A DNA stretch of 64,000 bases from a virus (lineage: Duplodnaviria > Heunggongvirae > Uroviricota > Caudoviricetes). Shown piece after piece: positions 1-63,619 of the stretch. The stretch lies in the IMG/VR virus record IMGVR_UViG_2880412407_000002. One strand, 5' to 3'. A program made the translations under genes and the position numbers. The notes below the pieces were generated by a model that was given only the letters and a program-made list of their open reading frames with translations, was not told the DNA's origin and searched no databases. Within the stretch, counting starts at the first letter, position 1. Each line of letters begins with the position of its first letter.

Positions 1-717
1 GCCGGTACCACTCTGTGGGTTTACAACGGCAAGGGTGATGCTTATGCAAACCCGTTGTCAGACGATGACTGGCAGCGACTGGCTAAGGTGAAGGATCTGA
101 CGCCGGGCGAGATGACGGCAGAACCCTACGATGATAACTACCTGGATGATGAAGACGCGGACTGGACCGCGACCGGGCAGGGGCAGAAGTCTGCAGGAGA
201 TACCAGTTTTACGCTGGCCTGGAAACCGGGAGAAGAAGGTCAGAAAGGGCTTATAGGCTGGTTTGAAAGCGGGGATGTGCGGGCCTATAAAATCCGTTTC
301 CCAAATGGCACGGTGGATGTGTTCCGTGGCTGGGTCAGCAGTATCGGTAAGGCCGTGACGGCGAAAGAAGTGATCACCCGCACGGTGAAAGTGACCAACG
401 TGGGCAAACCTTCTGTAGCGGAAGAACGCAGCAAAATTACGCCGGTCACTGCGATTAAGGTGACGCCGACATCCGGTACGGTGGCAAAAGGGAAAACAAC
501 CACCCTGACGGTTTCTTTTGAGCCGGAAAGTGCAACCGACAAGACGTTCAGAGCGGTTTCCGCCGATCCGTCGAAAGCCACCATTAGTGTGAAAGATATG
601 ACAATTACGGTAAACGGCGTGGCGACAGGTAAGGTGCAGATCCCTGTGGTGAGCGGAAATGGTCAGTTCGCCGCAGTGGCTGAAGTCACCGTTACTGAAG
701 CGGGCGCTGCAGGGTAA
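1..717 (+). CDS. V: Major tail protein V, 5'-truncated by window edge
   Basis: Near-identical to the complete copy at 49549..50301; Ig-like C-terminal region; lambda gene order. Confidence 0.9.
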
Positions 718-730
718 ACGGAGGTCATAC

Positions 731-1153
731 ATGTTTCTGAAAACAGAACAATTTGAATATAACGGTGTGTCCGTCACGCTTTCCGAATTGTCTGCGCTGC
801 AGCGGTTTGATTATATAAAGTTTGTTTCAGACGCAGAACAACAGGAGACAACGAAGCATGATGTCGTGCACATTAACCAGCGATATCTGGAAACGGCATC
901 CCTGCTTGTGGCGATGTCGCTATGGCATTCCCATTCCCTCAAAGGCACTCTGGCCTCTCCGGAGACAGAGATGCAGCAGATCCGCCGTGAAGTGATGCTG
1001 GGATGGCCTGCTGATGCACTGAATCAGGCAACGAACCGGGTGCTTTATCTTTCAGGTATGCTGGATAACCGGCACGATGCCGATCCTGAACCAACCGGGA
1101 AAACAGAAGCGACTGAGCCGGTAACATCAAAAAAGCATTCGAAGGCGAGCTGA
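731..1153 (+). CDS. G: Tail assembly chaperone G
   Basis: MFLKTEQFEYNGVSVTLSELSALQR start; position between V and H. Confidence 0.85.
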   Translation: MFLKTEQFEYNGVSVTLSELSALQRFDYIKFVSDAEQQETTKHDVVHINQRYLETASLLVAMSLWHSHSLKGTLASPETEMQQIRREVMLGWPADALNQATNRVLYLSGMLDNRHDADPEPTGKTEATEPVTSKKHSKAS

Positions 1154-1488
1154 ACTTTGTCCTGAAACTGGCGCGTGAGATGGGGAGAGCCGACTGGCGC
1201 GCCATGCTTGCCGGGATGACATCCACCGAATATGCCGACTGGCGACGTTTTTACTGCACGCATTATTTTCAGGATACCCAGCTGGATATGCATTTTTCCG
1301 GGCTGACGTACGCCGTACTCAGCCTGTTTTTTTGCGATCCGGATATGCATCCGGCGGATTTCAGCCTGTTCGCTCCGGAGGCAGAGGAAGGGCAGGCGGA
1401 GACGCCGGACGAAAATGATGTACTGATGCAGAAGGCGGCGGGCCTCGCCGGTGGAGTCCGTTTCGGGGAGGAGGGAAGGAGGTTGTGA
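731..1488 (+). CDS. T: Tail assembly protein G-T, made by programmed -1 frameshift
   Basis: T frame (1180..1488) is -1 relative to G and overlaps the G 3' end; slippery A_AAA_AAG in the G zero frame. Confidence 0.7.
1129..1135 (+). promoter_or_regulatory. Putative -1 ribosomal slippery heptamer A_AAA_AAG for G-T
   Basis: Codons AAA (1130-1132) and AAG (1133-1135) are in the G frame, just before the G stop. Confidence 0.6.
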
Positions 1489-1531
1489 CAGTTATTGATG
1501 GTATCAGAGGACATTTCAGGAGGTGACCACG

Positions 1532-4176
1532 ATGGCAGGTAATTTTGCCGATCTGACAGCCGTGCTGACACTGGATTCTGCCCGTTTTTCTGAAGAGGCA
1601 GCGCGGGTAAAAAAAGAGCTGGGTGAAACCAGTGCGCTTGCTGATTTGATGTCCGGGAAAGTCAGTCAGTCTTTCAGAAAACAGGCTGATGCTGCTGAGC
1701 AGAGTCTGAGCCGACAGGCGCTGGCTGCACAAAAAGCCGGGATATCAGTCGGACAGTATAAGGCTGCCATGCGCACACTGCCCGCACAGTTCACGGATAT
1801 TGTCACTCAGCTTGCCGGTGGTCAGAATCCCTTCCTTATCATGCTGCAGCAGGGGGGGCAGATCAGCGATTCATTCGGTGGACCGCTCAGCCTGCTTACC
1901 CTGCTGAAGGAGGAACTTCTCGGGATCAGGGATGCCTCTGAATCATCAGAGGAGTCGCTGTCAGATACGGCAAATGCACTGGCTGAAAATGCCCGGAATG
2001 CCGGTGAGCTGGGACGATTTATGTCGGTGGCCCGTGTGGCGGCAGGTGGCGGGGTTGCCGTACTGGCCGCGCTTGCTGCCGCCGCCTGGCAGGCAGAGCA
2101 GGCTGACCGGGCCTTATTGCGTTCACTGACCCTGACCGGAGGGGCTGCTGCCACCACAACGGCAGAATTGTGGAAAATGGCCGGGGTGATCAGCGATGAA
2201 GCCGGTGGTGGTATCAGACAGGCGGCAGAAAATCTGGCCCGTCTGGCAGAAAGCGGGAAATATACCGCCGGGCAGCTACGGATCATGGGGGAAACCTCTC
2301 AGAGATGGCTGCAGACGGTGGGGGACGATGCCGGGAAGGTGGAAAAAGCCTTTGAAGGGATTGCAGCAGATCCGGTGAAGGCGCTGGCCTCCCTGAATCA
2401 GCAGTATAACTTCCTGAGCGTTTCCCAGTTACGCCATATTGATGAGCTTGAGCGCACGAAAGGTAAACAGGCTGCGGTGACGGAGGCGATGTCCCTGTTT
2501 GCGGATGTCATGAATGCACGTCTGGAGCAACTTGATAAAGCGGCCACGCCGGTGGAAAAAATCTGGGACGATGTTAAAACCTGGACTTCTGACGCATGGG
2601 CATGGATAGGTGATCATACACTGGGGGCACTCAGTCTGATCACTGACGTGGTGGCCGGAACCGTTGAACAAGTGAAGCTGCTGCTTGTGCAGGGGATCTG
2701 GCGCTGGCTGAATTTATTCAGTCAGCCTGGGAAACGACAAAGAATGTGCCCGGCGTTGGTGCGTTGTTTGGTGAACTGGCAGAAGAGAACCGCGTATTTA
2801 TTGAGAAAACAAAACGCGATGAACTGGCGCTGAGAAAATCCATTGCGGAACGGGATGCGCGTATACGCCAGGGGGAAATGGGGTACATCAACCGCTCGCG
2901 TGCAACAGGCGTCAGCAAAGGTCCTGGGCAGCAGGAAGCCGTCAGCCGTCTGGCTGAAGAGCTGACAGGTAAAAAGCATACATCACCGAAAACGCGCTCT
3001 GCCGGGGAGAGGGAAGAGGAGCAGGCAAGAGAGGCTCTGCTTGCCCTTGAAGCTGAGCTCAGGACGCTGGAAAAACACAGCGGTGCGAATGAGAAAATCA
3101 GTCGGCAGCGCCGTGATTTATGGAAGGCGGAAAGTCAGTATGCGGTCCTGAAAGAGGCTGCCACGAAACGGCAGTTATCCTGGCAGGAAAAATCCCTGCT
3201 GGCCCATGAGAAAGAGACGCTGGAGTACAAACGCCAGCTGGCTGACCTGGGCGACAAGGTTGAACACCAGAAACGCCTGAATGAGCTGGCACAGCAGGCG
3301 GTGCGGTTTGAAGAGCAGCAGAGCGCGAAGCAGGCCGCCATCAGCGCAAAAGCCCGCGGTCTCACTGACCGTCAGGCGCAGCGGGAGTCTGAAGCGCAGC
3401 GTCTTCGGGACGTGTACGGTGATAATCCGCAGGCGCTGGCCCGGGTCACCGGGGCACTGAAACAGACATGGGCGGATGAAGACATGCTGCGCGGTGACTG
3501 GCTGGCCGGGCTGAAGTCCGGCTGGGGGGAGTGGGCGGAAAGTGCGACGGACAGTTTTTCGCAGGTTAAAAGTGCTGCCACGCAGACCTTTGACGGTATT
3601 GCACAGAATATGGCGGCGATGCTGACCGGTGCAGAGGCAGACTGGCGGGGATTCACCCGTTCGGTGCTGTCCATGATGACAGAAATCCTGCTTAAACAGG
3701 CCATGGTGGGCATTGTCGGGCGTATCGGCAGCGCCATTGGCGGTGCTTTCGGTGGTGGTGCATCTGCTTCCTCGGGGACGGCCATTGAGGCTGCGGCGGC
3801 GAACTTCCATTTCGCGACCGGAGGATTTACGGGGACGGGCGGCAAATATGAGCCTGCGGGGATAGTTCACCGCGGGGAGTTTGTTTTCACGAAAGAGGCA
3901 ACCAGCCGGATAGGTGTGGGGAATCTTTACCGTCTGATGCGCGGCTATGCGGAAGGTGGTTATGTGGGTGGTGCCGGAAGTCCGGCGCAGATGCGGCGGG
4001 CGGAAGGTATTAATTTTAATCAGAACAATCACGTGGTGATTCAGAACGACGGTATCAACGGACAGGCGGGGCCGCAGCTGATGAAGGCGGTGTATGACAT
4101 GGCCCGCAAGGGGGCGCAGGATGAGCTCCGGCTGCAGTTGCGTGATGGCGGTATGTTATCAGGGAGCGGGCGATGA
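1532..4176 (+). pseudogene. H: Tail tape measure protein H, reading frame broken near 2692-2695 (G run)
   Basis: Two overlapping ORFs (1523..2833, 2746..4176); C-terminal half matches lambda H; possible sequencing artefact. Confidence 0.8.
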
Positions 4177-4502
4177 AAACATTTCGCTGGAAAGTGAAGC
4201 CGGATATGGAGGTGAACTCGCAGCCATCGGTGCGTGAAGTGCGTTTTGGTGACGGGTATTCGCAGCGTATGGCGGCGGGGCTGAATGCTGACCTGAAAAC
4301 ATACCGTGTGACGCTTTCCGTGACCCGGGAGGAGGCCCGGCATCTGGAAGCGTTCCTGGCAGAGCACGGTGGCTGGAAGGCGTTTCTGTGGACACCGCCT
4401 TATGCATACCGACAGATAAAGGTGACCTGTGCCGGGTGGTCTGCGCGGGTCGGGATGTTGCGCGTTGAGTTCAGCGCGGAGTTTAAGCAGGTGGTGAACT
4501 GA
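4173..4502 (+). CDS. M: Minor tail protein M
   Basis: 109 aa; start overlaps H stop; lambda order. Confidence 0.85.
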   Translation: MKTFRWKVKPDMEVNSQPSVREVRFGDGYSQRMAAGLNADLKTYRVTLSVTREEARHLEAFLAEHGGWKAFLWTPPYAYRQIKVTCAGWSARVGMLRVEFSAEFKQVVN

Positions 4503-5200
4503 TGCAGGATATTCACGAAGAAAGTCTGAACGAGTCGGTTAAATCAGAGCAGTCACCGCGGGTGGTACTCTGGGAAATCGACCTGACGGCGCAGGGCGGT
4601 GAGCGGTATTTTTTCTGCAATGAGCTGAATGAAAAAGGGGAGCCGGTGACCTGGCAGGGGCGTGAATATCAGGCGTACCCGATTGAGGGCAGCGGCTTTG
4701 AGATGAACGGAAAGGGCAGCAGTGCCCGCCCGTCGCTGACGGTGTCCAATCTGTTCGGTCTTGTCACCGGGATGGCGGAGGATTTGCAGAGCCTGGTGGG
4801 TGCCACGGTGGTCCGCCGCCGGGTGTATGCGCGTTTTCTGGATGCGGTGAACTTTGTGGCAGGCAATCCGGAGGCCGACCCGGAGCAGGAGCTGACTGAC
4901 CGGTGGGTGGTGGAGCAGATGTCAGAGCTGACGGCCATGACGGCCTCGTTTGTGCTGGCCACACCGACGGAGACGGACGGAGCGCTGTTTCCCGGTCGCA
5001 TCATGCTGGCGAACACCTGTATGTGGGATTACCGGGGAGATGAATGCGGGTATAACGGTCCTGCGGTGGCGGATGAGTTCGACAACCCCACCACGGATAT
5101 CCGTAAGGACAGATGCAGCAAGTGCATGCGCGGGTGTGAGATGCGCGGCATGGTGGCTAATTTTGGCGGTTTCCTTTCCATCAATAAACTTTCGCAGTAA
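4502..5200 (+). CDS. L: Minor tail protein L
   Basis: 232 aa; overlaps M stop (ATGA junction). Confidence 0.85.
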   Translation: MQDIHEESLNESVKSEQSPRVVLWEIDLTAQGGERYFFCNELNEKGEPVTWQGREYQAYPIEGSGFEMNGKGSSARPSLTVSNLFGLVTGMAEDLQSLVGATVVRRRVYARFLDAVNFVAGNPEADPEQELTDRWVVEQMSELTAMTASFVLATPTETDGALFPGRIMLANTCMWDYRGDECGYNGPAVADEFDNPTTDIRKDRCSKCMRGCEMRGMVANFGGFLSINKLSQ

Positions 5201-5210
5201 ATCCTGTTTT

Positions 5211-5954
5211 ATGACACAGACTGAATCAGCGATTCTGGTGCATGCCCGGCGGTGTGCGCCTGCGGAGTCGTGCGGCTTCGTGATAGGCACCCCGGAGGGC
5301 GAACGGTACCAGCCCTGCGTGAATATCTCCGCAGAGCCGGAGGCGTATTTTCGTATTGCGCCGGAAGACTGGCTGCAGGCAGAGATGCAGGGGGAGATTG
5401 TGGCGCTGGTTCACAGCCACCCTGGTGGTCTGCCCTGGCTGAGCGAGGCGGACCGGCGGCTGCAGATAAAGAGTGCCCTGCCCTGGTGGCTGGTCTGCCG
5501 GGGGGAAATTCACAAATTCCGCTGTGTGCCGCACCTGACCGGGCGTCGTTTTGAGCACGGGGTGACGGACTGTTACACCCTGTTCCGGGATGCATACCAT
5601 CTGGCGGGGATAACGCTGCCGGATTTTGTGCGTGAGGATGACTGGTGGCGCAACGGTCAGAACCTTTACCTGGACAATATGGCGGCGACTGGTTTTTACA
5701 GGATTTCCCTGCCTTCCGCACAGCCTGGCGATATCCTGCTGTGCTGCTTTGGCGCATCGGTGGCCAATCATGCCGCCATATACTGCGGCAACGGTGAGCT
5801 GCTTCACCATCTGCCTGAACAACTGAGTAAACGGGAGAGGTATTCCGAAAAATGGCAACGACGAACGCATTCAGCCTGGCGTCACCGCCACTGGCACGTA
5901 TCTGCCTTCACGGGGATTTACAACGATTTGGCCGCCGCCTCAGCCTGTATGTGA
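5211..5954 (+). CDS. K: Tail tip assembly protein K
   Basis: MTQTESAILVHARR start; HSHPGG motif typical of JAB/MPN domains; the 4950 ORF start is an upstream extension. Confidence 0.8.
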   Translation: MTQTESAILVHARRCAPAESCGFVIGTPEGERYQPCVNISAEPEAYFRIAPEDWLQAEMQGEIVALVHSHPGGLPWLSEADRRLQIKSALPWWLVCRGEIHKFRCVPHLTGRRFEHGVTDCYTLFRDAYHLAGITLPDFVREDDWWRNGQNLYLDNMAATGFYRISLPSAQPGDILLCCFGASVANHAAIYCGNGELLHHLPEQLSKRERYSEKWQRRTHSAWRHRHWHVSAFTGIYNDLAAASACM

Positions 5955-6532
5955 ACACGGCAGCGGAAGCCATCCGTGCCCTGTCGATGCAGATGCCGGG
6001 ATTCCGCCGTCAGATGAACGAAGGCTGGTACCAGATACGTATTGCCGGTGATGACACGGCACCGGAGGCGGTGTACGCCCGTCTTCACGAACAGCTGGGT
6101 GAGGGAACGGTCATCCACATTGTGCCGCGACTGGCCGGGGCCGGAAAGGGCGGACTGCAGATTGTGCTGGGGGCGGCAGCCATCGTGGGGTCGTTCTTCA
6201 CGGCCGGGGCATCAATGGCGTTATGGGGTTCAGCCCTGGCAGCCGGTGGTTTTTCTGCCACCACGATGCTGTTTTCTCTGGGGGCCAGCATGATTCTGGG
6301 TGGTGTGGCTCAGATGCTGGCCCCGAAGGCTAAAGTACCGGAGTACAAAAGCACGGATAACGGCAGACAGAACACGTACTTTTCCTCGCTGGATAACATG
6401 ATTGCTCAGGGGAACCCGATGCCGGTGCCTTACGGTGAAATGCTGGTTGGTTCACGACGGATATCCCAGGACATCAGCACCCGTGATGAGGGCGGGGGCG
6501 GAAAGGTCGTGGTTATCGGGCGGCAGAGGTAA
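5852..6532 (+). CDS. I: Tail tip assembly protein I (true start uncertain)
   Basis: Matches lambda I pattern ARICLxGDLQRFGRR; overlaps K 3' end. Confidence 0.75.
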   Translation: MATTNAFSLASPPLARICLHGDLQRFGRRLSLYVNTAAEAIRALSMQMPGFRRQMNEGWYQIRIAGDDTAPEAVYARLHEQLGEGTVIHIVPRLAGAGKGGLQIVLGAAAIVGSFFTAGASMALWGSALAAGGFSATTMLFSLGASMILGGVAQMLAPKAKVPEYKSTDNGRQNTYFSSLDNMIAQGNPMPVPYGEMLVGSRRISQDISTRDEGGGGKVVVIGRQR

Positions 6533-6780
6533 AAAGAATAAAAAAATCCCGCAGTGTATGGAGGCTGCGGGAACAGAAAATGAAGATTAACCACAGGGAG
6601 TTTTGTTTTTATTGGCCCGAAAAAACTGTAACGCCCGGGAATGATATCTGCCACGGGGGCGTACAGAAAATGTGAAGAAATTCAGAAATTTTATTCCGTC
6701 ATGACACAGGCACCCTCCGGGGTGCCTGTCGTTTTTGGGGCATAAACAGATTCAGACATCAGACAGGAGAGGGGGACAGA

Positions 6781-9700
6781 GTGGGTAAAGGGGGCGGCAA
6801 GGCGCACACGCCGGTAGAGGCAAAGGACAATCTTAAGTCCACGCAGATGATGAGCGTGATTGACGCCATTGGTGAAGGGCCGATTGAAGGTCCGGTGAAG
6901 GGGCTGCAGAGTATCCTGGTGAACAAAACCCCGCTGACGGACACGGACGGTAATCCTGTGATACATGGTGTGACAGCGGTCTGGCGCGCCGGGGAGCAGG
7001 AGCAGACACCGCCGGAAGGCTTTGAGTCCTCCGGGGCGGAAACCGCACTGGGCGTGGAAGTGACGAAGGCAAAGCCGGTGACGCGCACCATTACGTCCGC
7101 GAACATTGACCGCCTGCGGGTCACCTTCGGGGTGCAGTCACTGTTGGAGACCACCTCAAAGGGCGACCGTAATCACTCTTCTGTCCGACTGCTGATTCAG
7201 TTGCAGCGTAACGGTAACTGGGTGACGGAAAAGGATGTCACCATTAACGGCAAGACCACCTCGCAGTTTCTGGCGTCGGTGATTCTGGGTAATCTGCCGC
7301 CCCGGCCCTTTAACATCCGGATGGTCAGGGAGACGGCGGACAGCACCACGGACCAGCTGCAGAATAAGACGCTCTGGTCGTCATACACCGAAATCATCGA
7401 TGTGAAACAGTGCTACCCGAACACGGCGATTGTGGGGCTGCAGGTGGATGCGGAGCAGTTTGGTGGCCAGCAGATGACGGTGAACTACCATATCCGCGGT
7501 CGCATCATTCAGGTACCGTCAAACTATGACCCGGAAAAACGCACTTACAGCGGTATCTGGGACGGCAGCCTGAAACCGGCATACAGCAATAACCCGGCCT
7601 GGTGCCTGTGGGACATGCTGACCCACCCGCGCTACGGAATGGGAAAACGTCTGGGGGCGGCGGATGTGGACAAGTGGGCGCTGTATGCCATCGGGCAGTA
7701 CTGCGACCAGACGGTCCCGGATGGTTTCGGGGGCACAGAGCCGCGGATGACCTTTAATGCGTACCTGTCACAACAGCGTAAGGCGTGGGACGTTCTCAGT
7801 GATTTCTGCTCGGCGATGCGCTGTATGCCGGTATGGAACGGGCAGACGCTGACGTTTGTGCAGGACCGTCCGTCAGATGTGGTGTGGCCCTACACAAACA
7901 GTGATGTGGTGGCTGACAATGAAGGTGTGGGATTCCGCTACAGTTTCAGCGCCCTGAAGGACCGTCATACTGCGGTGGAGGTGAATTACACCGACCCGCA
8001 TAACGGCTGGCAGACCTCCACGGAACTGGTGGAAGACCCGGAAGCCATACTGCGCTACGGACGCAACCTGCTGAAGATGGATGCGTTCGGCTGCACCAGT
8101 CGCGGTCAGGCCCACCGTGCCGGGCTGTGGGTGATAAAGACCGGACTGCTGGAAACGCAGACGGTGGATTTCACGCTCGGGTCACAGGGGCTGCGTCACA
8201 CACCCGGTGACATTATTGAAATCTGTGATAACGACTATGCCGGGACCATGACCGGCGGACGTGTCCTGTCCATCGATGCCGCCAGCCGCACCCTGACGCT
8301 GGACCGTGAGGTGACACTGCCGGAGACAGGTACATCGGCGGTGAACCTGATTAACGGCAGCGGTAAGCCGGTGAGTGTGGACATCACCGCACACCCCGCG
8401 CCGGACCGGATACAGGTCAGTACCCTGCCTGATGGTGTGGAGACATACGGGGTGTGGGGACTCTCCCTGCCGTCACTGCGCCGTCGCCTGTTCCGCTGTG
8501 TCTCCATCCGGGAAAACACGGACGGCACCTTTGCCATCACGGCGGTGCAGCACGTACCGGAAAAGGAAGCCATCGTGGATAACGGGGCCAGCTTTGAGCC
8601 GCAGTCAGGCACCCTGAACAGCGTCATCCCTCCGGCAGTGCAGCACCTGACGGTGGAGGTGAGCGCAGCTGACGGCCAGTATCTGGCGCAGGCGAAATGG
8701 GACACGCCGCGGGTGGTGAAGGGCGTGCGCTTCAGTCTGCGCCTGACCAGTGGAAGCGGTGAGGACAGCCGTCTGGTGACCACCGCCATCACCGCGGATA
8801 CAGAGCACCGTTTCAGCGGTCTGCCGCCGGGGGAATACACCCTGACGGTCAGGGCGATTAACAGTTATGGCCAGCAGGGGGAACCGGCCACCACCACGTT
8901 CAGGATTAATGCACCTGCGGTACCCGCCACGATTGAGCTGACACCGGGCTATTTTCAGATAACAGCGGTCCCGCGTCTTGCGGTGTATGACCCGACGGTA
9001 CAGTTTGAGTTCTGGTTTTCGGAGACAAAAATCGCAGACACATCTCAGGTGGAAACCTCTGCCCGTTATCTGGGGACCGGCAGTCAGTGGAGTGTATCCG
9101 GCCCGCACATTAAGCCCGGGAAGGATTTCTGGTTTTACGTGCGCAGCGTCAACCTGGTGGGGAAATCTGCTTTTGTGGAAGCCAGTGGCCGGGCCAGCAA
9201 TGATGCAGAAGGGTATCTGGGGCTGTTTCGGGAAAAAATAGGAAAACTGCATCTGGCTCAGGGGCTGTGGGAGCTGATAGATAACAGCCAGCTTGCGGAT
9301 GAGATGGCGGAGATGAAGACCTCCATCACCGAAACCCGCAATGAAATCACACAGACGGTCAGTAAAACGCTGGAGGACCAGAGCGCCATCATACAGCAGA
9401 TACAGCGCGTGCAGAAGGACACAAATGATGACCTTGCTGCACTTTACATGCTGAAGGTACAGAAAACAAAAAATGGCATACCCTATGTTGCCGGTATTGG
9501 AGCGGGGATTGAGGATACTGATGGCCAGCCACTGAGCAACATACTGCTGCTGGCTGACCGTATCGCGATGATAAATCCGGAGAGCGGCAACAGCACGCCG
9601 TTATTTGTGGCGCAGGGGAATCAGCTGTTCATGAACGACGTGTTCCTGAAACGACTGTTTGCGGTGAGCATCACGTCATCCGGCAATCCTCCGGCATTTT

Positions 9701-10257
9701 CCCTGACGCCGGACGGGCGACTGACGGCGAAAAATGCGGATATCAGTGGCAGTGTGAATGCGAACTCAGGGACGCTCAACAACGTCACGATTAATGAGAA
9801 CTGTCAGATTAAGGGGAAACTGTCAGCCAACCAGATTGAAGGCGATATTGTCAAAACGGTCAGCAAGTCTTTCCCCCGCACGAGCACTTATGCCAGTGGC
9901 ACCATCACGGTAAGAATCAGTGATGATCAGAAGTTTGACCGGCAGGTCATGATACCGCCAGTGTTATTCCGCGGTGGTAAGCATGAGAATTTCAACAGTA
10001 ATAACCAACAGTCATACTGGTATTCAACCTGCCGGTTAAGAGTGACCCGCAATGGTCAGGAGATTTTTAATCAGTCCACGACGGATGCTCAGGGCGTATT
10101 TTCCTCAGTTATAGATATGCCTGCCGGACAGGGGACGCTGACACTGACATTCACCGTATCTTCATCAGGAGCGAATAACTGGACACCAACAACCAGTATC
10201 AGCGATCTGCTGGTTGTGGTGATGAAAAAATCCACAGCAGGTATCAGTATCAGCTGA
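6781..10257 (+). CDS. J: Tip attachment / host specificity protein J (GTG start)
   Basis: 1158 aa; lambda J-like N-terminus [23 protein letters not shown]-terminal region diverges from copy B. Confidence 0.9.
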
Positions 10258-10323
10258 ATTTTATAACCCAGAACGGGCGTCAGAAATGACGCCTTTTTTA
10301 TTGCAGAAAAGCGAGAGGTAATT

Positions 10324-10922
10324 ATGCGTAAACTTTATGCCGCCATTTTGTCCGCAGCCATCTGTCTGGCCGTATCCGGCGCGCCTGCATGGGCGTCTGA
10401 GCAGCAGGCCACGCTGAGCGCGGGGTATCTTCATGCCCGGACGAGCGCTCCCGGCAGCGATGATCTTAACGGGATTAACGTGAAATACCGTTATGAGTTT
10501 ACGGACACACTGGGGATGGTGACGTCGTTCAGCTATGCAGGAGACAAGAATCGCCAGATTACCCGTTACAGCGATACCCGCTGGCATGAAGATTCCGTTC
10601 GTAACCGCTGGTTCAGCGTAATGGCGGGGCCGTCTGTGCGCGTGAATGAATGGTTCAGCGCGTATGCGATGGCGGGTGTGGCTTACAGCCGTGTGTCGAC
10701 TTTCTCCGGGATTATCTTCGCGTAACTGACAACAAGGGGAAAACGCACGATGTGCTGACCGGAAGTGATGACGGTCGCCACAGCAACACGTCTCTGGCGT
10801 GGGGAGCTGGCGTGCAGTTTAACCCGACCGAATCCGTGGCCATTGATATTGCTTATGAAGGTTCTGGCAGTGGTGACTGGCGCACTGACGGGTTCATCGT
10901 GGGTGTTGGTTATAAATTCTGA
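10324..10922 (+). pseudogene. lom: Outer membrane protein Lom, frame broken near 10708-10710
   Basis: Two ORFs (10324..10725, 10650..10922) together match the intact 199-aa copy at 59696..60295; GGG here versus GGGG there. Confidence 0.8.
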
Positions 10923-10986
10923 TTAGCCAGGTAACACAGTGTTATGACAGCCCGCCGGTTCAGGCGGGCTTTTTTGTGGGGTGAAT

Positions 10987-12298
10987 ATGGCAGTAAAGAT
11001 TTCAGGTGTACTGAAAGACGGCACAGGAAAACCGGTAGAGAACTGCACCATTCAACTGAAAGCCAGACGGACCAGCAGCACGGTGGTGGTGAACACGGTG
11101 GCCTCTGAAAATCCGGATGAAGCCGGTCGTTACAGCATGGACGTTGAGTACGGTCAGTACAGAGTCATTCTGTTGGTGGAAGGATTCCCGCCGTCACATG
11201 CCGGGACCATCACCGTGTATGAAGATTCTCAACCCGGTACGCTGAATGATTTTCTCGGTGCCATGTCGGAGGATGACGTCCGGCCGGAGGCACTGCGCCG
11301 TTTTGAACTGATGGTGGAAGAGGTGGCGCGTCACGCTGAGGAGGCGAAGAAGAATGCCGGAGAGGCGGAGACGTCAGCAAGGAATGCCGGCATATCAGCC
11401 AGTCAGGCAGAAAAGAGCGCTGCACATGCTGACACTTCAGCAGGATATGCATCGGAGTCAGCCCGGCAGGCGGCAGAAAGTGCAGCCTCAGCAAAGCAGT
11501 CAGAGGAGGCGTCCTCGTCCTCGGCCTCTGAGGCCGCTCAAAAAGCCAGTGAGTCATCACAAAGTGCAGCAGAAGCTGAATTGTCAAGAAAGACGGCAGA
11601 AAGTGCAGCCGGTAATGCAGCCAGGGATGCAACGACCGCAACAGAAAAAGCCCGGGAGTCAGCAGAAAGCGCACAGTCAGCGGAACAAAGCAGGATAGCG
11701 GCGGAAGAAGCCGTAAACAGAATCCCCACCGTGGTGGGACCTCCCGGGCCAAAGGGGAACAGGGGCCCGCGGGTCCTCAGGGCTGAAGGGGGATAAGGGA
11801 GAGCGTGGTGACACCGGCCCTGTCGGGGCAACCGGCGAACGGGGACCGGCAGGTGATGCTGGTCCGGCAGGCCCGCAGGGGCCGAAAGGTGACAGGGGAG
11901 AGCGGGGAGAGACCGGTCTGACGGGAAATGCAGGTCCACAGGGTCCAAAGGGAGATACCGGTGCGGCAGGCCCGGCAGGCCCACAGGGACCGAAAGGAGA
12001 AACAGGTGCGGCTGGCCCGGTGGGGGCAACCGGACCTCAGGGACCGAAGGGCGACCCGGGGGAGACACAAATCCGTTTTCGTCTGGGGCCGGCGAGCATT
12101 ATTGAGACAAACAGCAATGGCTGGTTCCCGGATACAGATGGCGCACTCATCACCGGACTGACCTTTCTTGACCCCAAAGATGCCACACGGGTTCAGGGAC
12201 TGTTTCAGCATTTGCAGGTCAGATTTGGCGACGGGCCGTGGCAGGATGTCAAGGGGCTGGATGAAGTGGGCAGTGATACAGGCAGAACAGGAGAATGA
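10987..12298 (+). pseudogene. stf: Side tail fibre with collagen-like Gly-X-Y repeats, two frame breaks in G runs (about 11754 and 11780-11792)
   Basis: ORFs 10981..11796 and 12020..12298 match the intact copy at 60360..61673. Confidence 0.75.
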
Positions 12299-12299
12299 C

Positions 12300-12569
12300 A
12301 TGAATATACTAAAAAAACTTATGCAGCGTCTGTGCGGTTGCGGAAAGCATGATGACCGTGAACACGGGGAGTTACTTACAGCACAGCTGCGACTGGGGCC
12401 GGCAGACATCCTGGAGTCAGATGAGAATGGCATTATCCCGGAGCAGGACAGGGTAATCACGCAGGTGGTGATACTGGATGCGGATAAAAAGCAGATACAG
12501 TGCGTGGTAAGACCGCTGCAAATCCTGCGTGCTGACGGGACGTGGGAAAATATTGGCGGGATGAAGTAA
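12300..12569 (+). CDS. Conserved 89-aa protein immediately after the tail fibre gene, function unknown
   Basis: MNILKKLMQRLCGCGKHD start; second copy at 61675..61944 and a 3' fragment at 62650..62783. Confidence 0.6.
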   Translation: MNILKKLMQRLCGCGKHDDREHGELLTAQLRLGPADILESDENGIIPEQDRVITQVVILDADKKQIQCVVRPLQILRADGTWENIGGMK

Positions 12570-28003: not shown

Positions 28004-28607
28004 GCGTTCTCCCCATGAGCATTAAAGGATGCTTAAGATATGCTATGTCACTGATAAAAAATTTGTTGTGTGTGTTTAGTTATTTTATCTACCTCCATTA
28101 TGATTTAAGACTGATATATGTTATCAGCAAAGGTACATCGTTATTATTTTACCTGTCAATACATTTGATATTGATTATCGTTTACATCGCTTGCTTAGGA
28201 AATTGAAGGCAGGTAACTATCATGTCAATGAACTAACCCACAGTCTAACGTACTTCTTTCCCCAATCACCAACAACCAAATTCCTGTTATCACCACTGGG
28301 ATTTTGGCGCAACTTCATGGTGCAGAGGTAAATAGCATCAAGCAAAATCTCTTTTTCCGTTGTTGTCCTTATGGGACGTCTGTCTTTCTGACCGATTTCA
28401 TATTGGCGAGGTAATGGGAAGTTAAGTAGAATAGCTGCGGGTGCTTGAGGCTATCTGCCTCGGGCATGAACACCAACGGCAGATAGAGAAAAGCCCCAGT
28501 TAACATTACGCGTCCTGCAAGACGCTTAACATTAATCTGAGGCTCAATCTATGAACGGCAAATCTAGGTTAGCCTCTTACGTGCCGAAAGGCAAGGAGAA
28601 GCAGGCT

Positions 28608-28763
28608 ATGAAGCAGCAAAAGGCGATGTTAATCGCCCTGATCGTCATCTGTTTAACCGTCATAGTGACGGCACTGGTAACGAGGAAAGACCTCTGCGAG
28701 GTACGAGTCCGAACCGGCCAGACGGAGGTCGCTGTCTTCACAGCTTACGAACCTGAGGAGTAA
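28608..28763 (+). CDS. hokD: Hok/Gef-family type I toxin (HokD/RelF-like); an in-frame upstream start exists at 28551
   Basis: MKQQKAMLIALIVICLTVIVTALVTRKDLCEVRVRTGQTEVAVFTAYEPEE. Confidence 0.8.
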   Translation: MKQQKAMLIALIVICLTVIVTALVTRKDLCEVRVRTGQTEVAVFTAYEPEE

Positions 28764-33337: not shown

Positions 33338-33413
33338 GGCCCTTTAGCTCAGTGGTGAGAGCGAGCGACTCATAATCGCCAGGTCGCTGGTTCAAATCCA
33401 GCAAGGGCCACCA
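33338..33413 (+). tRNA. ileZ: tRNA with CAU anticodon (ileZ-like tRNA-Ile2 or tRNA-Met)
   Basis: 76 nt cloverleaf folded by hand; anticodon loop cuCAUaa; CCA end. Confidence 0.85.
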
Positions 33414-33420
33414 TCACATA

Positions 33421-33497
33421 CCGCCATTAGCTCATCAGGAAAGAGCGCCAGCCTTCGAAGCTGGCTGCGCGGGGTTCAAGTCCCCGATGGCGGTCCA
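33421..33497 (+). tRNA. argN: tRNA-Arg (anticodon UCG)
   Basis: 77 nt; anticodon loop cuUCGaa; 7-bp acceptor stem; CCA end. Confidence 0.8.
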
Positions 33498-33510
33498 TTA
33501 TCTGCATCAT

Positions 33511-33587
33511 GCGTTGTTAGCTCAGCCGGACAGAGCAATTGCCTTCTAAGCAATCGGTCAGTGGTTCGACTCCACTACAACGCGCCA
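33511..33587 (+). tRNA. argO: tRNA-Arg (anticodon UCU)
   Basis: 77 nt; anticodon loop cuUCUaa; 7-bp acceptor stem; CCA end. Confidence 0.85.
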
Positions 33588-34352: not shown

Positions 34353-34666
34353 TTTTTTTGTTTGCTGTTTATTAAAAACACTTCTGCATGGTGAATCCCC
34401 CTGTGCGGAGGGGCGATCAGCAACCAGGTATATGGGATAATCGCGGATTCAGGTGCTGATACTGAATTCACCGGGAGGCACCCGGCACCATGCTTTGCCA
34501 CAAAAGTGTTGTTTCTGTTTTTCTCAAACTATCATCGTTATCCCTTTATTTCCGGCTGCGCATGGCGTGGCCTTTTTTTTACGACCAGCCACTGGCAGAT
34601 GGCCATCCTGTAATTTGATTCCGGTTCCGGCTTTTTAACTCTGTTCCTGTACACGGGAGAAATTCG

Positions 34667-37307: not shown

Positions 37308-37523
37308 ATGTACCAGATGGAAAAAATCACAACGGGTGTGTCATACACCACGTCAGCGGTGGGAACGGGATACTGGTTACTGCAGCTGCTGGACAAAGTC
37401 TCTCCGTCCCAGTGGGTGGCGATAGGTGTGCTGGGGAGTCTGCTGTTTGGCCTGCTGACGTATCTGACTAACCTGTATTTCAAAATCAGAGAGGACCGTC
37501 GTAAGGCGGCGCGGGGAGAGTAA
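37308..37523 (+). CDS. S: Pinholin S (phage 21 type) with dual-start motif
   Basis: Two in-frame Met codons three codons apart give 71 and 68 aa; C-terminus [20 protein letters not shown]. Confidence 0.8.
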
Positions 37524-37527
37524 AGCG

Positions 37528-37872
37528 ATGAAGAAAAAATACGAACTGGGTGTTAAAGGGATAAATAATTACCCGGATAAGATTACTGTTACTGTGGCAC
37601 TGGAAATTGGTGGGTATCCGTCACTGTTGTTGCCAAATGTGGCGATTAGTCTTGACCGTACTGAAGGTGCCACGCTGGAGTTTTACGAAGCTGAGGCGAA
37701 AAAGCAGGCGAAGCAGTTTTTCATGGATGTTGCTGCCGGGTTATGTGAAGGGGATGGTCCGTTGCCGGAAAAGCGCCCCATCATTTTAGAGGCGCAGGAT
37801 GTGTTGATAACCTACAGAGGAAAACTACCGGGAATAATTACTGGTTCTCTGAAGACTCCACCGCTGGCCTGA
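37528..37872 (+). CDS. YdfR-like protein between holin and endolysin
   Basis: 114 aa; same position as ydfR in Qin. Confidence 0.45.
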   Translation: MKKKYELGVKGINNYPDKITVTVALEIGGYPSLLLPNVAISLDRTEGATLEFYEAEAKKQAKQFFMDVAAGLCEGDGPLPEKRPIILEAQDVLITYRGKLPGIITGSLKTPPLA

Positions 37873-37922: not shown

Positions 37923-38456
37923 ATGAACGCAAAAATCAGATACGGCCTGTCGGCTGCCGTTCTGGCGCTGATTGGTGCAGGGGCGTCTGCGCCTGAAATC
38001 CTCGACCAGTTTCTTGACGAAAAAGAAGGTAACCACACCACGGCATACCGTGATGGTGCGGGGATCTGGACCATCTGCCGCGGTGCCACCCGAGTGGATG
38101 GTAAGCCTGTCGTCCCGGGTATGAAGTTATCGAAGGAAAAGTGCGACCAGGTTAACGCCATTGAACGTGATAAGGCGCTGGAGTGGGTGGAGCGCAATAT
38201 TAAAGTACCGCTGACCGAACCCCAGAAGGCGGGTATCGCGTCATTTTGTCCTTATAACATTGGCCCCGGTAAGTGTTTCCCGTCGACGTTTTACAGACGG
38301 ATTAATGCCGGTGACCGCAGGGGAGCATGCGAGGCGATTCGCTGGTGGATTAAGGACGGTGGCAGAGACTGCCGTATTCGCTCAAACAACTGCTACGGTC
38401 AGGTCTCACGGCGTGACCAGGAGAGCGCGCTGGCGTGCTGGGGAATTGACAGATAA
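37923..38456 (+). CDS. R: Signal-anchor-release (SAR) endolysin, lysozyme family
   Basis: N-terminal weakly hydrophobic segment LSAAVLALIGAGASA followed by E-x9-D-x5-T catalytic spacing. Confidence 0.8.
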   Translation: MNAKIRYGLSAAVLALIGAGASAPEILDQFLDEKEGNHTTAYRDGAGIWTICRGATRVDGKPVVPGMKLSKEKCDQVNAIERDKALEWVERNIKVPLTEPQKAGIASFCPYNIGPGKCFPSTFYRRINAGDRRGACEAIRWWIKDGGRDCRIRSNNCYGQVSRRDQESALACWGIDR

Positions 38457-38754: not shown

Positions 38755-39222
38755 ATGAACCGCGTACTGTGCGTGGTCATCATTGCCCTGCTGGTGGCCT
38801 GTGGTGCGCTTAGTCTGGGGCTGAATCATTACCGCGATAACGCCATTACCTACAAAGCGCAACGCGATAAAAAAGCCAGTGAGCTGAAGCTGGCGAACGT
38901 GACAATTACTGATATGCAGATACGCCAGCGTGATGTCGCTGCACTTGATGCCAGATACTCGAGGGAATTAGCCGATGCGAGAGCTGAAAATGAAACTCTG
39001 CGTGCTGATGTTGCCGCTGGTCGTAAGCGCCTGCGGATCAACGCCACCTGCTCCGGTACCGTGCGTGAAGCCACCGGCACCTCCGGCGTGGATAATGCAA
39101 CCGGCCCCCGACTGGCAGACACCGCTGAACGGGATTATTTCATCCTCAGAGAACGGCTGATGGCAATGCAGAAGCAACTGGAAGGAGCACAGGAATATAT
39201 CCGTACCCAGTGTATACCGTGA
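38755..39222 (+). CDS. Rz: Inner-membrane spanin Rz
   Basis: N-terminal transmembrane segment then coiled-coil; follows endolysin. Confidence 0.8.
38975..39160 (+). CDS. Rz1: Outer-membrane lipoprotein spanin Rz1, embedded in Rz in another frame
   Basis: Lipobox LVVSAC and proline-rich body. Confidence 0.7.
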
Positions 39223-39644
39223 TGTTTTGTTATGAAGGTGTTACTGATAATGTTAAGGCAATTTAACAAAGAGTCAGTTCCGGACTTTATAATGTGCTCA
39301 GTTCATGGCCAAAAACGATTTCTGTGATAAATATTTTGAATATTATTTACAGGTAAATGGAGTGGGCGCATGGATAGAAATATTACAATAGAGTATGAAG
39401 TATATGCCCGTATTGTATGGGCAGAGAAGGCAAAACACGGTAATTCCGTGTGTTGCCATGATACCTGATTGGCAGAATAGTTGTTTGGTTTTGAGTATAT
39501 AGTCAGCGTTTTTTGTTCGGTAATTGCTCTTTCAATTAAAATGCCAGATATGATTTGCTTTTCTTTGTTGTTTAGTTTTTTATTATTGTCTTATTAAGGA
39601 CGGTAAATTCAGGATAGTAGTCTGTAGATAAACGGAGGTTACTT

Positions 39645-39959
39645 ATGCTACATGATCACCTGGCAGAATGTCTGGAGAAAAAAGGACTGTACCGGAGAGC
39701 TGCTGAACGATGGGCAAAAGTGATGGTACAGCTAAGTGATGACCAGAAAAGAAAAGTGGCGGCACAGAAACGAGCAGAGTGTTTGCGTAAGGCGCGCCGG
39801 ACTCCGGTTTCACCGGTGAACCTGACCGAAATAAAACAAGCGGTCAACAGACTACATTCTGAGTTGGGAATGGGATTTGAAGAGCGGCGGGTATTCCGAC
39901 GATATAAAGGGACAGGAGAACAGAATACGTCCGGAAACGCGCGGTCAAAAAAATGCTAA
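39645..39959 (+). CDS. PerC-family (Pch-like) regulator, tentative
   Basis: 104 aa; LEKKGLYRRAAERWAKVM resembles PerC; very AT-rich upstream region. Confidence 0.45.
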   Translation: MLHDHLAECLEKKGLYRRAAERWAKVMVQLSDDQKRKVAAQKRAECLRKARRTPVSPVNLTEIKQAVNRLHSELGMGFEERRVFRRYKGTGEQNTSGNARSKKC

Positions 39960-40040
39960 AAAATATCTGAGAGAGTTATTGCCTGTTACCATAAGAAAAA
40001 GCGACTTTAGTGGTCGCTTTTTGTGTCATATATAAGTCGT

Positions 40041-40265
40041 TTAAGTAAACCTGTCTGAACAGGTGCTCTGGTCGTGTTTGTCTTTGTTGGGTACAAATTG
40101 AGAATATTTTTCATTAATTAATCTTCTTCTGCAGGCTTCAATAACCCACGCTGAAAAATTACCTGAACCTTTCAGGTCAAGAGCGATGTTAATTTGTTCA
40201 ATTATCTGGTTTGGAAATCGGATGTTGCGGGTTGTTGTTCTGCGGGTTCTGTTCTTTGATGACAT
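40041..40265 (-). CDS. Small ribbon-helix-helix-type DNA-binding protein
   Basis: 74 aa; IRFPNQIIEQINIALD...NFSAWVIEACRRRL fits a strand-helix-helix pattern. Confidence 0.45.
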   Translation of the reverse strand: MSSKNRTRRTTTRNIRFPNQIIEQINIALDLKGSGNFSAWVIEACRRRLINEKYSQFVPNKDKHDQSTCSDRFT

Positions 40266-40472
40266 AATGTTGCCCCGTATTCAGTGTTGCTGATTTGTAT
40301 TATCTGAAGTTGCTTTTACGCTAATTTGATGCAGATCAATTAATACGATACCTGCGTAATAATTGATTATTTCTCGTGGTTTGATGGCGTACACACATGT
40401 CGTGATAAACCTCATGTAGATGATAATTATTATCATTTTCGTGGGTCCTTTCCGGCGATCCGACAGGTTACG

Positions 40473-40484
40473 GGGCGGCGACCT
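40473..40484 (+). other. cos: cosN cohesive-end site, lambda type
   Basis: cgacaggttacg|GGGCGGCGACCT cgcgggttttcgctatttatgaaaattttccgg matches the lambda right-end/left-end junction. Confidence 0.8.
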
Positions 40485-40514
40485 CGCGGGTTTTCGCTAT
40501 TTATGAAAATTTTC

Positions 40515-40625
40515 CGGGATCCATGTCCGGTTTCTCTTCAAGTTAACTATATGAAAAATATAAAAACAGGTCTTCTGTGAACCGGACATGCACAAAAAAT
40601 AGATATGTAAACCGGACATGACCGG
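40515..40625 (+). promoter_or_regulatory. cosB-like region with three ccggacatg repeats (one inverted)
   Basis: Repeats at 40522-40530 (inverted), 40582-40590 and 40612-40620, between cosN and the small terminase gene. Confidence 0.6.
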
Positions 40626-40667
40626 TTTTGTTGTGATTGTGAGGTGAGAGTTTTTGCGAGGTGAGGA

Positions 40668-41177
40668 GTGGCTACGCAGACTGAAGTTGCCAGGCATTTA
40701 AGTCTGACCGATCGCCAGCTTCGCAGATTGCAGAAATTGCCGGGTGCCCCGATATCAAATAAGCGAGGGCAACTGGATCTGGATGCCTGGCGCGATTTTT
40801 ACATATCGTATCTGAGGAGAAGTAAAAACGATGTGCCTGATGGCGATAGCGAAGACGACTATGAGGAAAAATTGCTTATTGCCAGATGGGAACTGACAGC
40901 AGAACAGGCTGTTACACAGCAGTTAAAAAATGAGGTGTCAAAAGGAAAACTTATTGACACCGGGTTCTGTATTTTTGCCCTCAGTAAGCTGGCAATGGCG
41001 TTATCCAGTACGCTTGATTCCATCCCTTTATCCATGCAACGACAGTTTCCTGATTTAACACCGCGCCATCTTGACCATCTGAAAACCCTTATTGCTAAGG
41101 GGGCAAATCAGTGTGCGCGGGCGGGGGATAAATTACCGGATTTACTCGATGAATATATCAGAGCAACAACTGAATAA
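40668..41177 (+). CDS. Nu1: Terminase small subunit Nu1-like (GTG start)
   Basis: 169 aa; resembles lambda Nu1 in the FCIFALSKLA...LPLSMQRQFP region. Confidence 0.8.
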   Translation: MATQTEVARHLSLTDRQLRRLQKLPGAPISNKRGQLDLDAWRDFYISYLRRSKNDVPDGDSEDDYEEKLLIARWELTAEQAVTQQLKNEVSKGKLIDTGFCIFALSKLAMALSSTLDSIPLSMQRQFPDLTPRHLDHLKTLIAKGANQCARAGDKLPDLLDEYIRATTE

Positions 41178-62837: not shown

Positions 62838-63419
62838 ATGCCATTAACCTCAGATATTAATTCATCTTCGTTCCATCTTGGAATGGAGGTTCTTCGTGCT
62901 CAAGTTGCAGCCACTGGGCGTGGAGAATTTACAATGGGTGGTGAAACTGTCAGAATTGAATATAGTCCAACAGATGGGCGCTTTCTGGCCAGCGATGGCA
63001 CTGGGGGATTATTTACTGAATTATTGCTTTTAGGGTTCAATAATGGGCCTCAAGCTCTTGGCGAGAGAATGTTAAGTATTCTTTCAGGATCAGATGCAGG
63101 TGAAACACAATCGCAAGTGACTCCTCAGGATAAAATATATCAATGTAAGTTTTCTGTTAATACAGAGAGCCTCCAGTGTCCCTCTGATGCAACTCGATGC
63201 CCAATTATACTGGAAACACCAGAAGAAGGGGTATTTGTCAAAAATTCAGATAGTTCAGCAGTATGCACTTTATTTGATGTTGATGCACTTTCTCGCGTGG
63301 TTAATGACGGTTCAGTTCACCCTCTGACACGAGCTCCAATAACCCCATCAATGATTGTTAAACCAGAAGAGTGTAAATATGACCCTGCAAGGGGAAGCTT
63401 TATTATAAAAGATAGTTAA
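62838..63419 (+). CDS. Putative type III effector, NleG-like (U-box-type C-terminus), tentative
   Basis: 193 aa, AT-rich, in the effector locus after tail fibre genes; family assignment from recall only. Confidence 0.45.
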   Translation: MPLTSDINSSSFHLGMEVLRAQVAATGRGEFTMGGETVRIEYSPTDGRFLASDGTGGLFTELLLLGFNNGPQALGERMLSILSGSDAGETQSQVTPQDKIYQCKFSVNTESLQCPSDATRCPIILETPEEGVFVKNSDSSAVCTLFDVDALSRVVNDGSVHPLTRAPITPSMIVKPEECKYDPARGSFIIKDS

Positions 63420-63619
63420 GATGTTTCAAATGAAACAATATTAACTTCCGATAATTTATATAAAAACACCACAGGCATTCGGGGCCTGTGGTTGGTAAAA
63501 CAATATAATACGCGAGTTATTTTTCATGAGCTGGAGAGAAAACAATCAAGGTAAGTGGTATTATTTCACAAAATACCGGGCACTTTCTGGTGCCGCATCG
63601 TTCAGAGCTTCGGTGTATA

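Follow-up and report, generated by a model that had tools for sequence, protein, structure and literature searches.

Gene content of the interval between the lysis genes and cos

The 64,000-nucleotide stretch of DNA analysed here (hereafter the window; IMG/VR record IMGVR_UViG_2880412407_000002, Caudoviricetes) contains an interval of 1,241 bases, from position 39230 to 40470, between the lysis cassette and the cos site of a lambda-like prophage. Two genes were identified in this interval. The first, a pch gene at 39645..39959 on the plus strand, was assigned through Pfam PerC, RefSeq and UniRef as a group 1 homologue of PerC (PchA/B/C type) encoding a protein of 104 aa. The second, at 40041..40265 on the minus strand, encodes a 74-aa protein of the YlcI/YnfO family (DUF3950, PF13132). 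Both had been pointed out as open reading frames (ORFs) of 104 and 74 aa in an earlier note made from the letters of the window alone, and both were found at the coordinates given there. The 1,241 interval bases are 100% identical to chromosomes of Shiga toxin-producing Escherichia coli (STEC) O121:H19, such as NZ_CP022407.1, and the remaining window comprises the same complete lambdoid prophage together with the decayed tail region of a neighbouring prophage.

The interval is an ordinary cargo (moron) slot of this lambda-like prophage of E. coli O121:H19. Its left boundary is formed by the last gene of the lysis cassette, which encodes the Rz i-spanin (38755..39222, plus strand; Pfam Phage_lysis, E 6.9e-49; PHROG 13, Rz-like spanin; RefSeq ‘lysis protein’), and its right boundary by the gene for a Nu1-type small terminase subunit (40668..41177, plus strand; Pfam Phage_Nu1, E 1e-18; PHROG 57/1790), which is followed by the large terminase gene. 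Between Rz and the DUF3950 gene the cargo differs by phage, being bor in 434 and DLP12, kilA in the Shiga toxin (Stx) phage 2851, cspI, gnsB, ydfO and others in Qin, and pch in the window; the stretch from Rz to cos is well known as the place where lambdoid phages carry morons. The bor gene of lambda, an accessory gene that benefits the lysogen and not the phage, occupies the same slot as the window pch but lies on the opposite strand, whereas pch lies on the strand of the late operon, and it encodes an outer-membrane lipoprotein where pch encodes a cytoplasmic regulator. The pch cassette, which brings an AT-rich regulatory region and a terminator of its own, behaves as such a moron. The best overall explanation of the interval is that pch and the DUF3950 gene are two independent genes in this slot, a reading to which we assign a probability of about 0.9.

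Identity and distribution of pch

The protein encoded by pch matched the Pfam family PerC (PF06069) with an E value of 5.4e-44 and 148.8 bits (cut-off 22.6) over model positions 1-89 of 90. The earlier note had described a PerC-like N-terminus, a description that would have fallen had database searches returned no similarity to the PerC family. Strong similarity was found, and it covers residues 1-89 of the 104 and extends beyond the N-terminus across the whole Pfam model, so that the likeness to PerC stands and its limitation to the N-terminus does not. At the protein level, the window Pch is identical at 103 of 104 positions to PchA (ECs_1091) of prophage Sp4 of E. coli O157:H7 Sakai, the single difference being L6 versus V6, and it shares 47.1% identity over residues 2-88 (tblastn, E 1e-17) with PerC of pMAR7 (NC_010862), an EAF plasmid of enteropathogenic E. 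coli, where the match falls on the gene after perA and perB. In RefSeq the window protein is WP_001302717.1, ‘PerC family transcriptional regulator’, and UniRef calls the exact window sequence ‘PchABC family transcriptional regulator’. The gene is present in 672 of 5,426 complete E. coli genomes at a median of three copies, with four copies in the window strain, and 686 of the 687 matching records carry a copy at no less than 99% identity.

The pchA locus of Sakai resembles that of the window in several respects, including the length of the product (104 aa), the AT-rich upstream region, the downstream terminator and the location on a lambdoid prophage beside lysis genes. The two loci differ in host, PchA, PchB and PchC being proteins of O157:H7 and the window pch belonging to O121:H19, and in arrangement: in Sp4 the block of lysis genes and pchA is inverted next to IS629, whereas the window keeps an intact order of Rz, pch, ylcI and cos. 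Within Sp4 (locus L005, 22131-26400) this inverted block runs against the late operon; ISEc8 interrupts the region before the terminase genes of Sp4, and the DUF3950 gene is missing there. PerC of pMAR7 belongs to the same Pfam family as the window Pch, but it is an 89-aa protein encoded on a plasmid by the third gene of the perABC operon, unlike the prophage-borne pch. The two also differ in reported importance, PerC being dispensable for expression of LEE, the locus of enterocyte effacement, in enteropathogenic E. coli and pch essential in enterohaemorrhagic E. coli (PMC4764244).

Upstream region and probable terminator of pch

The non-coding region from the Rz stop to the pch start (39223..39644, plus strand), which presumably contains the pch promoter and 5′ leader, is 422 bp long with a GC content of 34.1%, as against 51.8% for the window, and only 1.4% of 422-bp segments are as low. 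This agrees with the earlier note, in which the region upstream of the 104-aa ORF had been called very AT-rich. The region is conserved with that upstream of Sakai pchA, the exception being a T-rich tract with an indel of about 40 bp. A scan of 39000-40800 against Rfam (E up to 1) left the AT-rich region without a match to any RNA family, and the small ORFs found in it, all of 38 aa or fewer, were not supported. The promoter scan returned a sole sigma-70-like match in the region, the putative promoter TTGCCA-17-AATAGT at 39453..39481 on the plus strand, with 9 of 12 positions matching; 4.2 matches were expected in shuffled sequences, and the match thus carries no statistical weight. A Shine-Dalgarno sequence, GGAGG, was read at 39634..39638 on the plus strand, 6 nt upstream of the pch ATG.

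Downstream of pch, between the two convergent genes, lies a hairpin (39996..40022) with an A-run on one side and a T-run on the other. Its predicted folding energy is −14.7 kcal/mol on the plus strand (z −3.8) and −12.3 kcal/mol on the minus strand (z −3.5), and none of 200 shuffled sequences was as stable. The hairpin is conserved in the pchA locus of Sakai, and it probably serves as a bidirectional intrinsic terminator for both convergent genes. On the strand of the DUF3950 gene, no promoter-like match was found upstream of that gene.

Predicted role and regulation of pch

Adherence and full expression of ler and espA require the group 1 genes pchA, pchB and pchC. The LEE1 promoter, for which PerC too has been reported as an activator, is activated by Pch only when it is silenced by H-NS, StpA and Hha; Pch lowers the occupancy of H-NS at LEE1 and binds low-GC DNA (PMC4764244). 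Given its near-identity to PchA of O157:H7, the window Pch would bind AT-rich DNA of the LEE1 (ler) promoter, displacing the silencing complex of H-NS, StpA and Hha, and Ler, once switched on by Pch, would in turn activate type III secretion with its effectors. We infer this activation of LEE1 through relief of H-NS silencing from homology to the characterised Pch proteins.

Several inputs to this pathway are suggested by the setting and by published work on pchA, upstream of which NtrC and sigma-S act (PMC10714755). Since pch lies on the strand of the late operon and no convincing plus-strand terminator was found between Rz and pch, late transcription should enter pch; induction of the prophage would then also transcribe the gene via the late operon, and such read-through is consistent with the SOS effect that has been reported. 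An intramolecular structure over the ribosome-binding site prevents translation of pchA, and under low oxygen the small RNA (sRNA) DicF lifts this block (PMC7769764, PMC7873438). A DicF gene was identified outside the interval, beside and upstream of dicB, at 19631..19682 on the minus strand (Rfam RF00039, 77 bits, E 2.9e-15), so that a single prophage holds both DicF, published as a trans-acting activator of pchA, and its target. Judging from those papers and from the near-identity of the window gene to pchA, DicF from the same prophage may activate the translation of the window pch.

Some results weigh against these proposals. Folding and duplex scans gave no clear hairpin pairing the Shine-Dalgarno sequence with an anti-Shine-Dalgarno sequence and no long DicF pairing site; RNAduplex, an ungapped helix search and base-pair probabilities returned only helices of 7-9 bp, with the Shine-Dalgarno sequence partly paired. 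A search of the interval for the high-affinity H-NS motif TCGATAAATT with up to two mismatches gave only two weak matches and no local enrichment. The single promoter-like match upstream of pch is weak, and four near-identical pch copies exist in the genome. The number of copies and the want of a strong promoter match would also suit another explanation, by which the window pch is a redundant or silent paralogue that plays little part in LEE expression and has been retained by riding on the prophage; the pch genes are reported to differ in the strength of their effect (PMC6265319), and for some O157:H7 copies a small contribution has been reported. We consider this explanation unlikely, since the ORF, the Shine-Dalgarno sequence, the upstream region and the terminator are intact and almost identical to those of the functional pchA locus of Sakai, and since a copy at the identity given above is found in nearly all matching records.

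The DUF3950 gene and its relatives

The 74-aa protein matched DUF3950 with an E value of 1.3e-17 and 63.8 bits (cut-off 25); it also matched PHROG 949, and its RefSeq entry is WP_001300236.1, ‘YlcI/YnfO family protein’. Homologues were found in 434, lambda, DLP12 (ylcI) and Qin (ynfO) of E. coli K-12, and Stx phages such as 2851. All of them sit in one orientation where the cargo slot meets the packaging genes, and the gene is a standing part of lambdoid genomes beside the packaging module. In lambda (J02459.1, 48145-48303, minus strand) the homologous ORF is 89% identical over residues 1-53 and is unannotated. Over the first 50 residues, YlcI, YnfO and the product of the lambda ORF differ from the window protein at five positions. 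The K-12 and lambda copies occupy the same position and orientation, from the slot to the small terminase gene, as the window copy; they are followed by DUF1398 and/or bor, whereas the window copy is followed by the convergent pch. While the first 50 or so residues of DUF3950 are nearly invariant, the C-terminal tails of YlcI, YnfO and the lambda protein are unrelated to that of the window protein, and tails are in general unrelated between prophages. This loss of similarity beyond about residue 50 puts the recombination junction of the cargo slot inside the 3′ end of the DUF3950 gene.

The pattern of substitutions was then compared among homologues. In the first 50 codons of five homologues, the numbers of variable columns at the first, second and third codon positions were 9, 4 and 22, and of the 22 nucleotide differences between the window and 434, 16 fall at third positions and only five amino-acid changes result. 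As the substitutions fall mostly at third positions, the DUF3950 ORF is a real gene. In the Stx phage 2851 the packaging module consists of an HNH endonuclease gene and terS, and only the coding part of the DUF3950 gene is conserved there, not its flank. That the ORF is kept despite a different packaging module implies that the protein, and not the cos DNA, is selected. On the evidence of these comparisons, the DUF3950 ORF is a protein-coding gene under purifying selection.

Among 1.84 billion cluster representatives, only 204 related clusters were found. In Rouxiella and Tatumella (loci L047, 3749-4180, and L050-L054, about 4000-4153), diverged homologues of about 50-57% identity occur singly, with housekeeping genes on either side and outside any evident prophage. 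A tblastn match in the Pasteurella phage Pmp7 lies on the strand opposite to the sole gene annotated there and was treated as chance. Assemblies labelled Kitasatospora, Cohnella, Pseudomonas, Pedobacter, Streptomyces and others contain contigs, about 3.5 kb or 48.4 kb long, with an 89%-identical DUF3950 gene (among loci L014-L055), and these contigs look like lambda control DNA left behind; such matches in unrelated taxa were not used for the distribution of the family. Among the papers searched, none deals with the function of DUF3950 (YlcI/YnfO).

A probable ribbon-helix-helix fold

In the earlier note the 74-aa protein had been called ribbon-helix-helix-like, and this description is probably right, although every line of support for it falls below significance and no test of the fold was significant on its own. 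The AlphaFold2 (AF2) model, with a mean pLDDT of 66.8 and about 84 in the core, shows an extended N-terminus followed by helices at residues 19-32 and 34-55; it is a model of the monomer, and the strand of a ribbon-helix-helix protein would form only in the dimer. An alignment of diverse members revealed the motif T-T-K-N-I-R-F-P, a helix, and then N-F-S-A-W-V-I-E-A-C-R. When the profile of these diverse members was searched against the Protein Data Bank (PDB) with E values up to 10, only two chains were returned, 9kkd of the CopG family (E 0.26) and CdbA (E 0.4). Both are ribbon-helix-helix proteins, and both align to the DUF3950 profile in the expected register, at levels below significance. 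In the hhalign comparison, NIRFP was placed in register with NLRWP of Arc (P 0.024), the sequence of Arc having been verified against the PDB.

The remaining comparisons were negative. Searches of PDB sequences with single proteins and with a profile of close homologues gave no match, Foldseek returned nothing significant in the PDB for the model of the 74-aa protein, and none of 40 DUF3950 family members matched a Pfam ribbon-helix-helix family. With Arc, Mnt and CopG, the window DUF3950 protein shows no significant match in sequence or structure and no Pfam ribbon-helix-helix match. Weighing the monomer model, the motif and the register of the alignments, we regard the DUF3950 protein as probably a small dimeric ribbon-helix-helix DNA-binding protein. 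A more specific proposal is that it is an Arc-like ribbon-helix-helix repressor, kept by lambdoid phages at the boundary of cargo and packaging genes, that either controls the neighbouring cargo (bor, DUF1398 and perhaps pch) or insulates cargo expressed in the lysogen from the late operon; this proposal we hold to be doubtful.

The unsupported orphan-antitoxin reading of the DUF3950 gene

The earlier note had offered two readings of the 74-aa gene, an orphan antitoxin or a small regulator, and had suggested that a lost toxin partner be sought in related prophages. In the window, the DUF3950 gene is followed downstream by the terminator and the convergent pch, with no adjacent co-oriented toxin gene. 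The search among related prophages yielded DUF1398 (ydfO/ybcV) as the only candidate for a lost partner. The 74-aa gene would then be the antitoxin of a type II system whose toxin, DUF1398, was lost on insertion of the pch cassette. In line with this, the 74-aa protein has a weak PHROG match to a HicB-like antitoxin (E 0.0099), its C-terminal tail diverges exactly where the cargo differs, and a DUF1398 gene lies 40-60 bp downstream on the same strand in Qin, in E. albertii and in other Escherichia prophages. Against it, DUF1398 gave no toxin or defence match in PADLOC, and no toxin literature on it was found; in lambda, 434 and DLP12 an opposite-strand gene comes between DUF3950 and DUF1398, or DUF1398 is absent; and no DUF1398 is annotated beside the DUF3950 gene in phage 2851. 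Moreover, the gene is solitary in Tatumella and Rouxiella, and its putative ribbon-helix-helix core evolves under purifying selection in the absence of a partner. When searched against PADLOC, the 74-aa protein itself gave only a spurious match to MTase_II (E 0.0026) and none to a curated antitoxin or defence family.

DUF3950 genes usually either stand alone or neighbour DUF1398, a family not known as a toxin, and a lost-partner origin of the 74-aa gene appears quite improbable. The orphan-antitoxin reading was accordingly not supported, and a stand-alone small DNA-binding protein or regulator, the second suggestion of the earlier note, is the better reading of the gene. The pair of DUF3950 and DUF1398 genes recurs in Escherichia and Shigella prophages (loci L010, L011, L012, L013 and L028, about 4001-4700, and L009, 4757-5458) and is absent from the window. 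Elsewhere in the window, the annotation of the prophage's immunity region includes a toxin-antitoxin pair of the relB/relE type (about 21352-21830, minus strand), so the prophage carries a complete system of this kind at another place.

The cos site

At about 88% identity, the right part of the interval matches the right-hand ends of lambda and 434 as far as their last base. Alignment to the cosQ annotated in phage 434 (OL657226) placed cosQ (GGGTCCT) at 40443..40449 on the plus strand, and the right ends of both lambda and 434 align to position 40472. Because the genome end of 434 maps to this base, the 12-nt cohesive end of cosN is placed at 40473..40484 on the plus strand, with the sequence GGGCGGCGACCT, which we take to be the cohesive-end sequence of lambda. 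A 51-aa ORF at 40281-40436 on the minus strand (phrog_9395) is probably no gene, a 7-nt indel breaking its frame relative to 434; this ORF beside cosQ is listed as hypothetical in some GenBank records.

The proximity of the DUF3950 ORF to cosN (210 bp at most) and its lack of annotation in the classical lambda record J02459 could suggest that the ORF is conserved merely through the packaging constraint on cosQ and its flanks and encodes no protein, but this is extremely improbable given that third codon positions dominate the variable columns, that the coding part alone is about 91% conserved in Stx phages where it adjoins the HNH endonuclease gene and not the lambda cos, and that the distant homologues outside prophages retain the same protein motif.

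Other features of the window

Upstream of the interval, the lysis cassette contains genes for a class II holin (37308-37523), a YdfR-family protein (37528-37872) and a lysozyme (37923-38456), and Rz1 (38975-39160) is embedded in Rz. The prophage also has a sok antisense RNA with hokD (28439-28613, plus strand), an sRNA match of the STnc100 family (34357-34529, plus strand), and a cluster of tRNA genes (Ile, Arg, Arg; 33338-33584, plus strand) downstream of the Q antiterminator region. The left part of the window, about 1-15000, belongs to a second prophage in decay; it is a tail region in which several tail genes are frameshifted, and espK comes after it.

Two type III effector genes were located at prophage ends, namely espK at about 13022-14383 on the minus strand and nleG at about 62839-63420 on the plus strand, the latter beyond the tail fibres of the main prophage. 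Their presence is an indirect indication of a LEE-positive host. STEC of serotype O121:H19 are eae-positive.

Biological significance

Annotations of both genes of the interval exist already and the pch family has been studied in depth, which makes the finding a known and ordinary one. The only remaining curiosity of the interval is the conserved DUF3950 gene beside cos. If the Arc-like repressor proposed above were real, a phage-encoded switch would lie directly beside a master virulence regulator. In enterohaemorrhagic E. coli the Pch proteins, encoded on prophages, are the master activators of the LEE type III secretion system; whether pch is present, and in how many copies, bears on the virulence of non-O157 STEC, O121:H19 among them.
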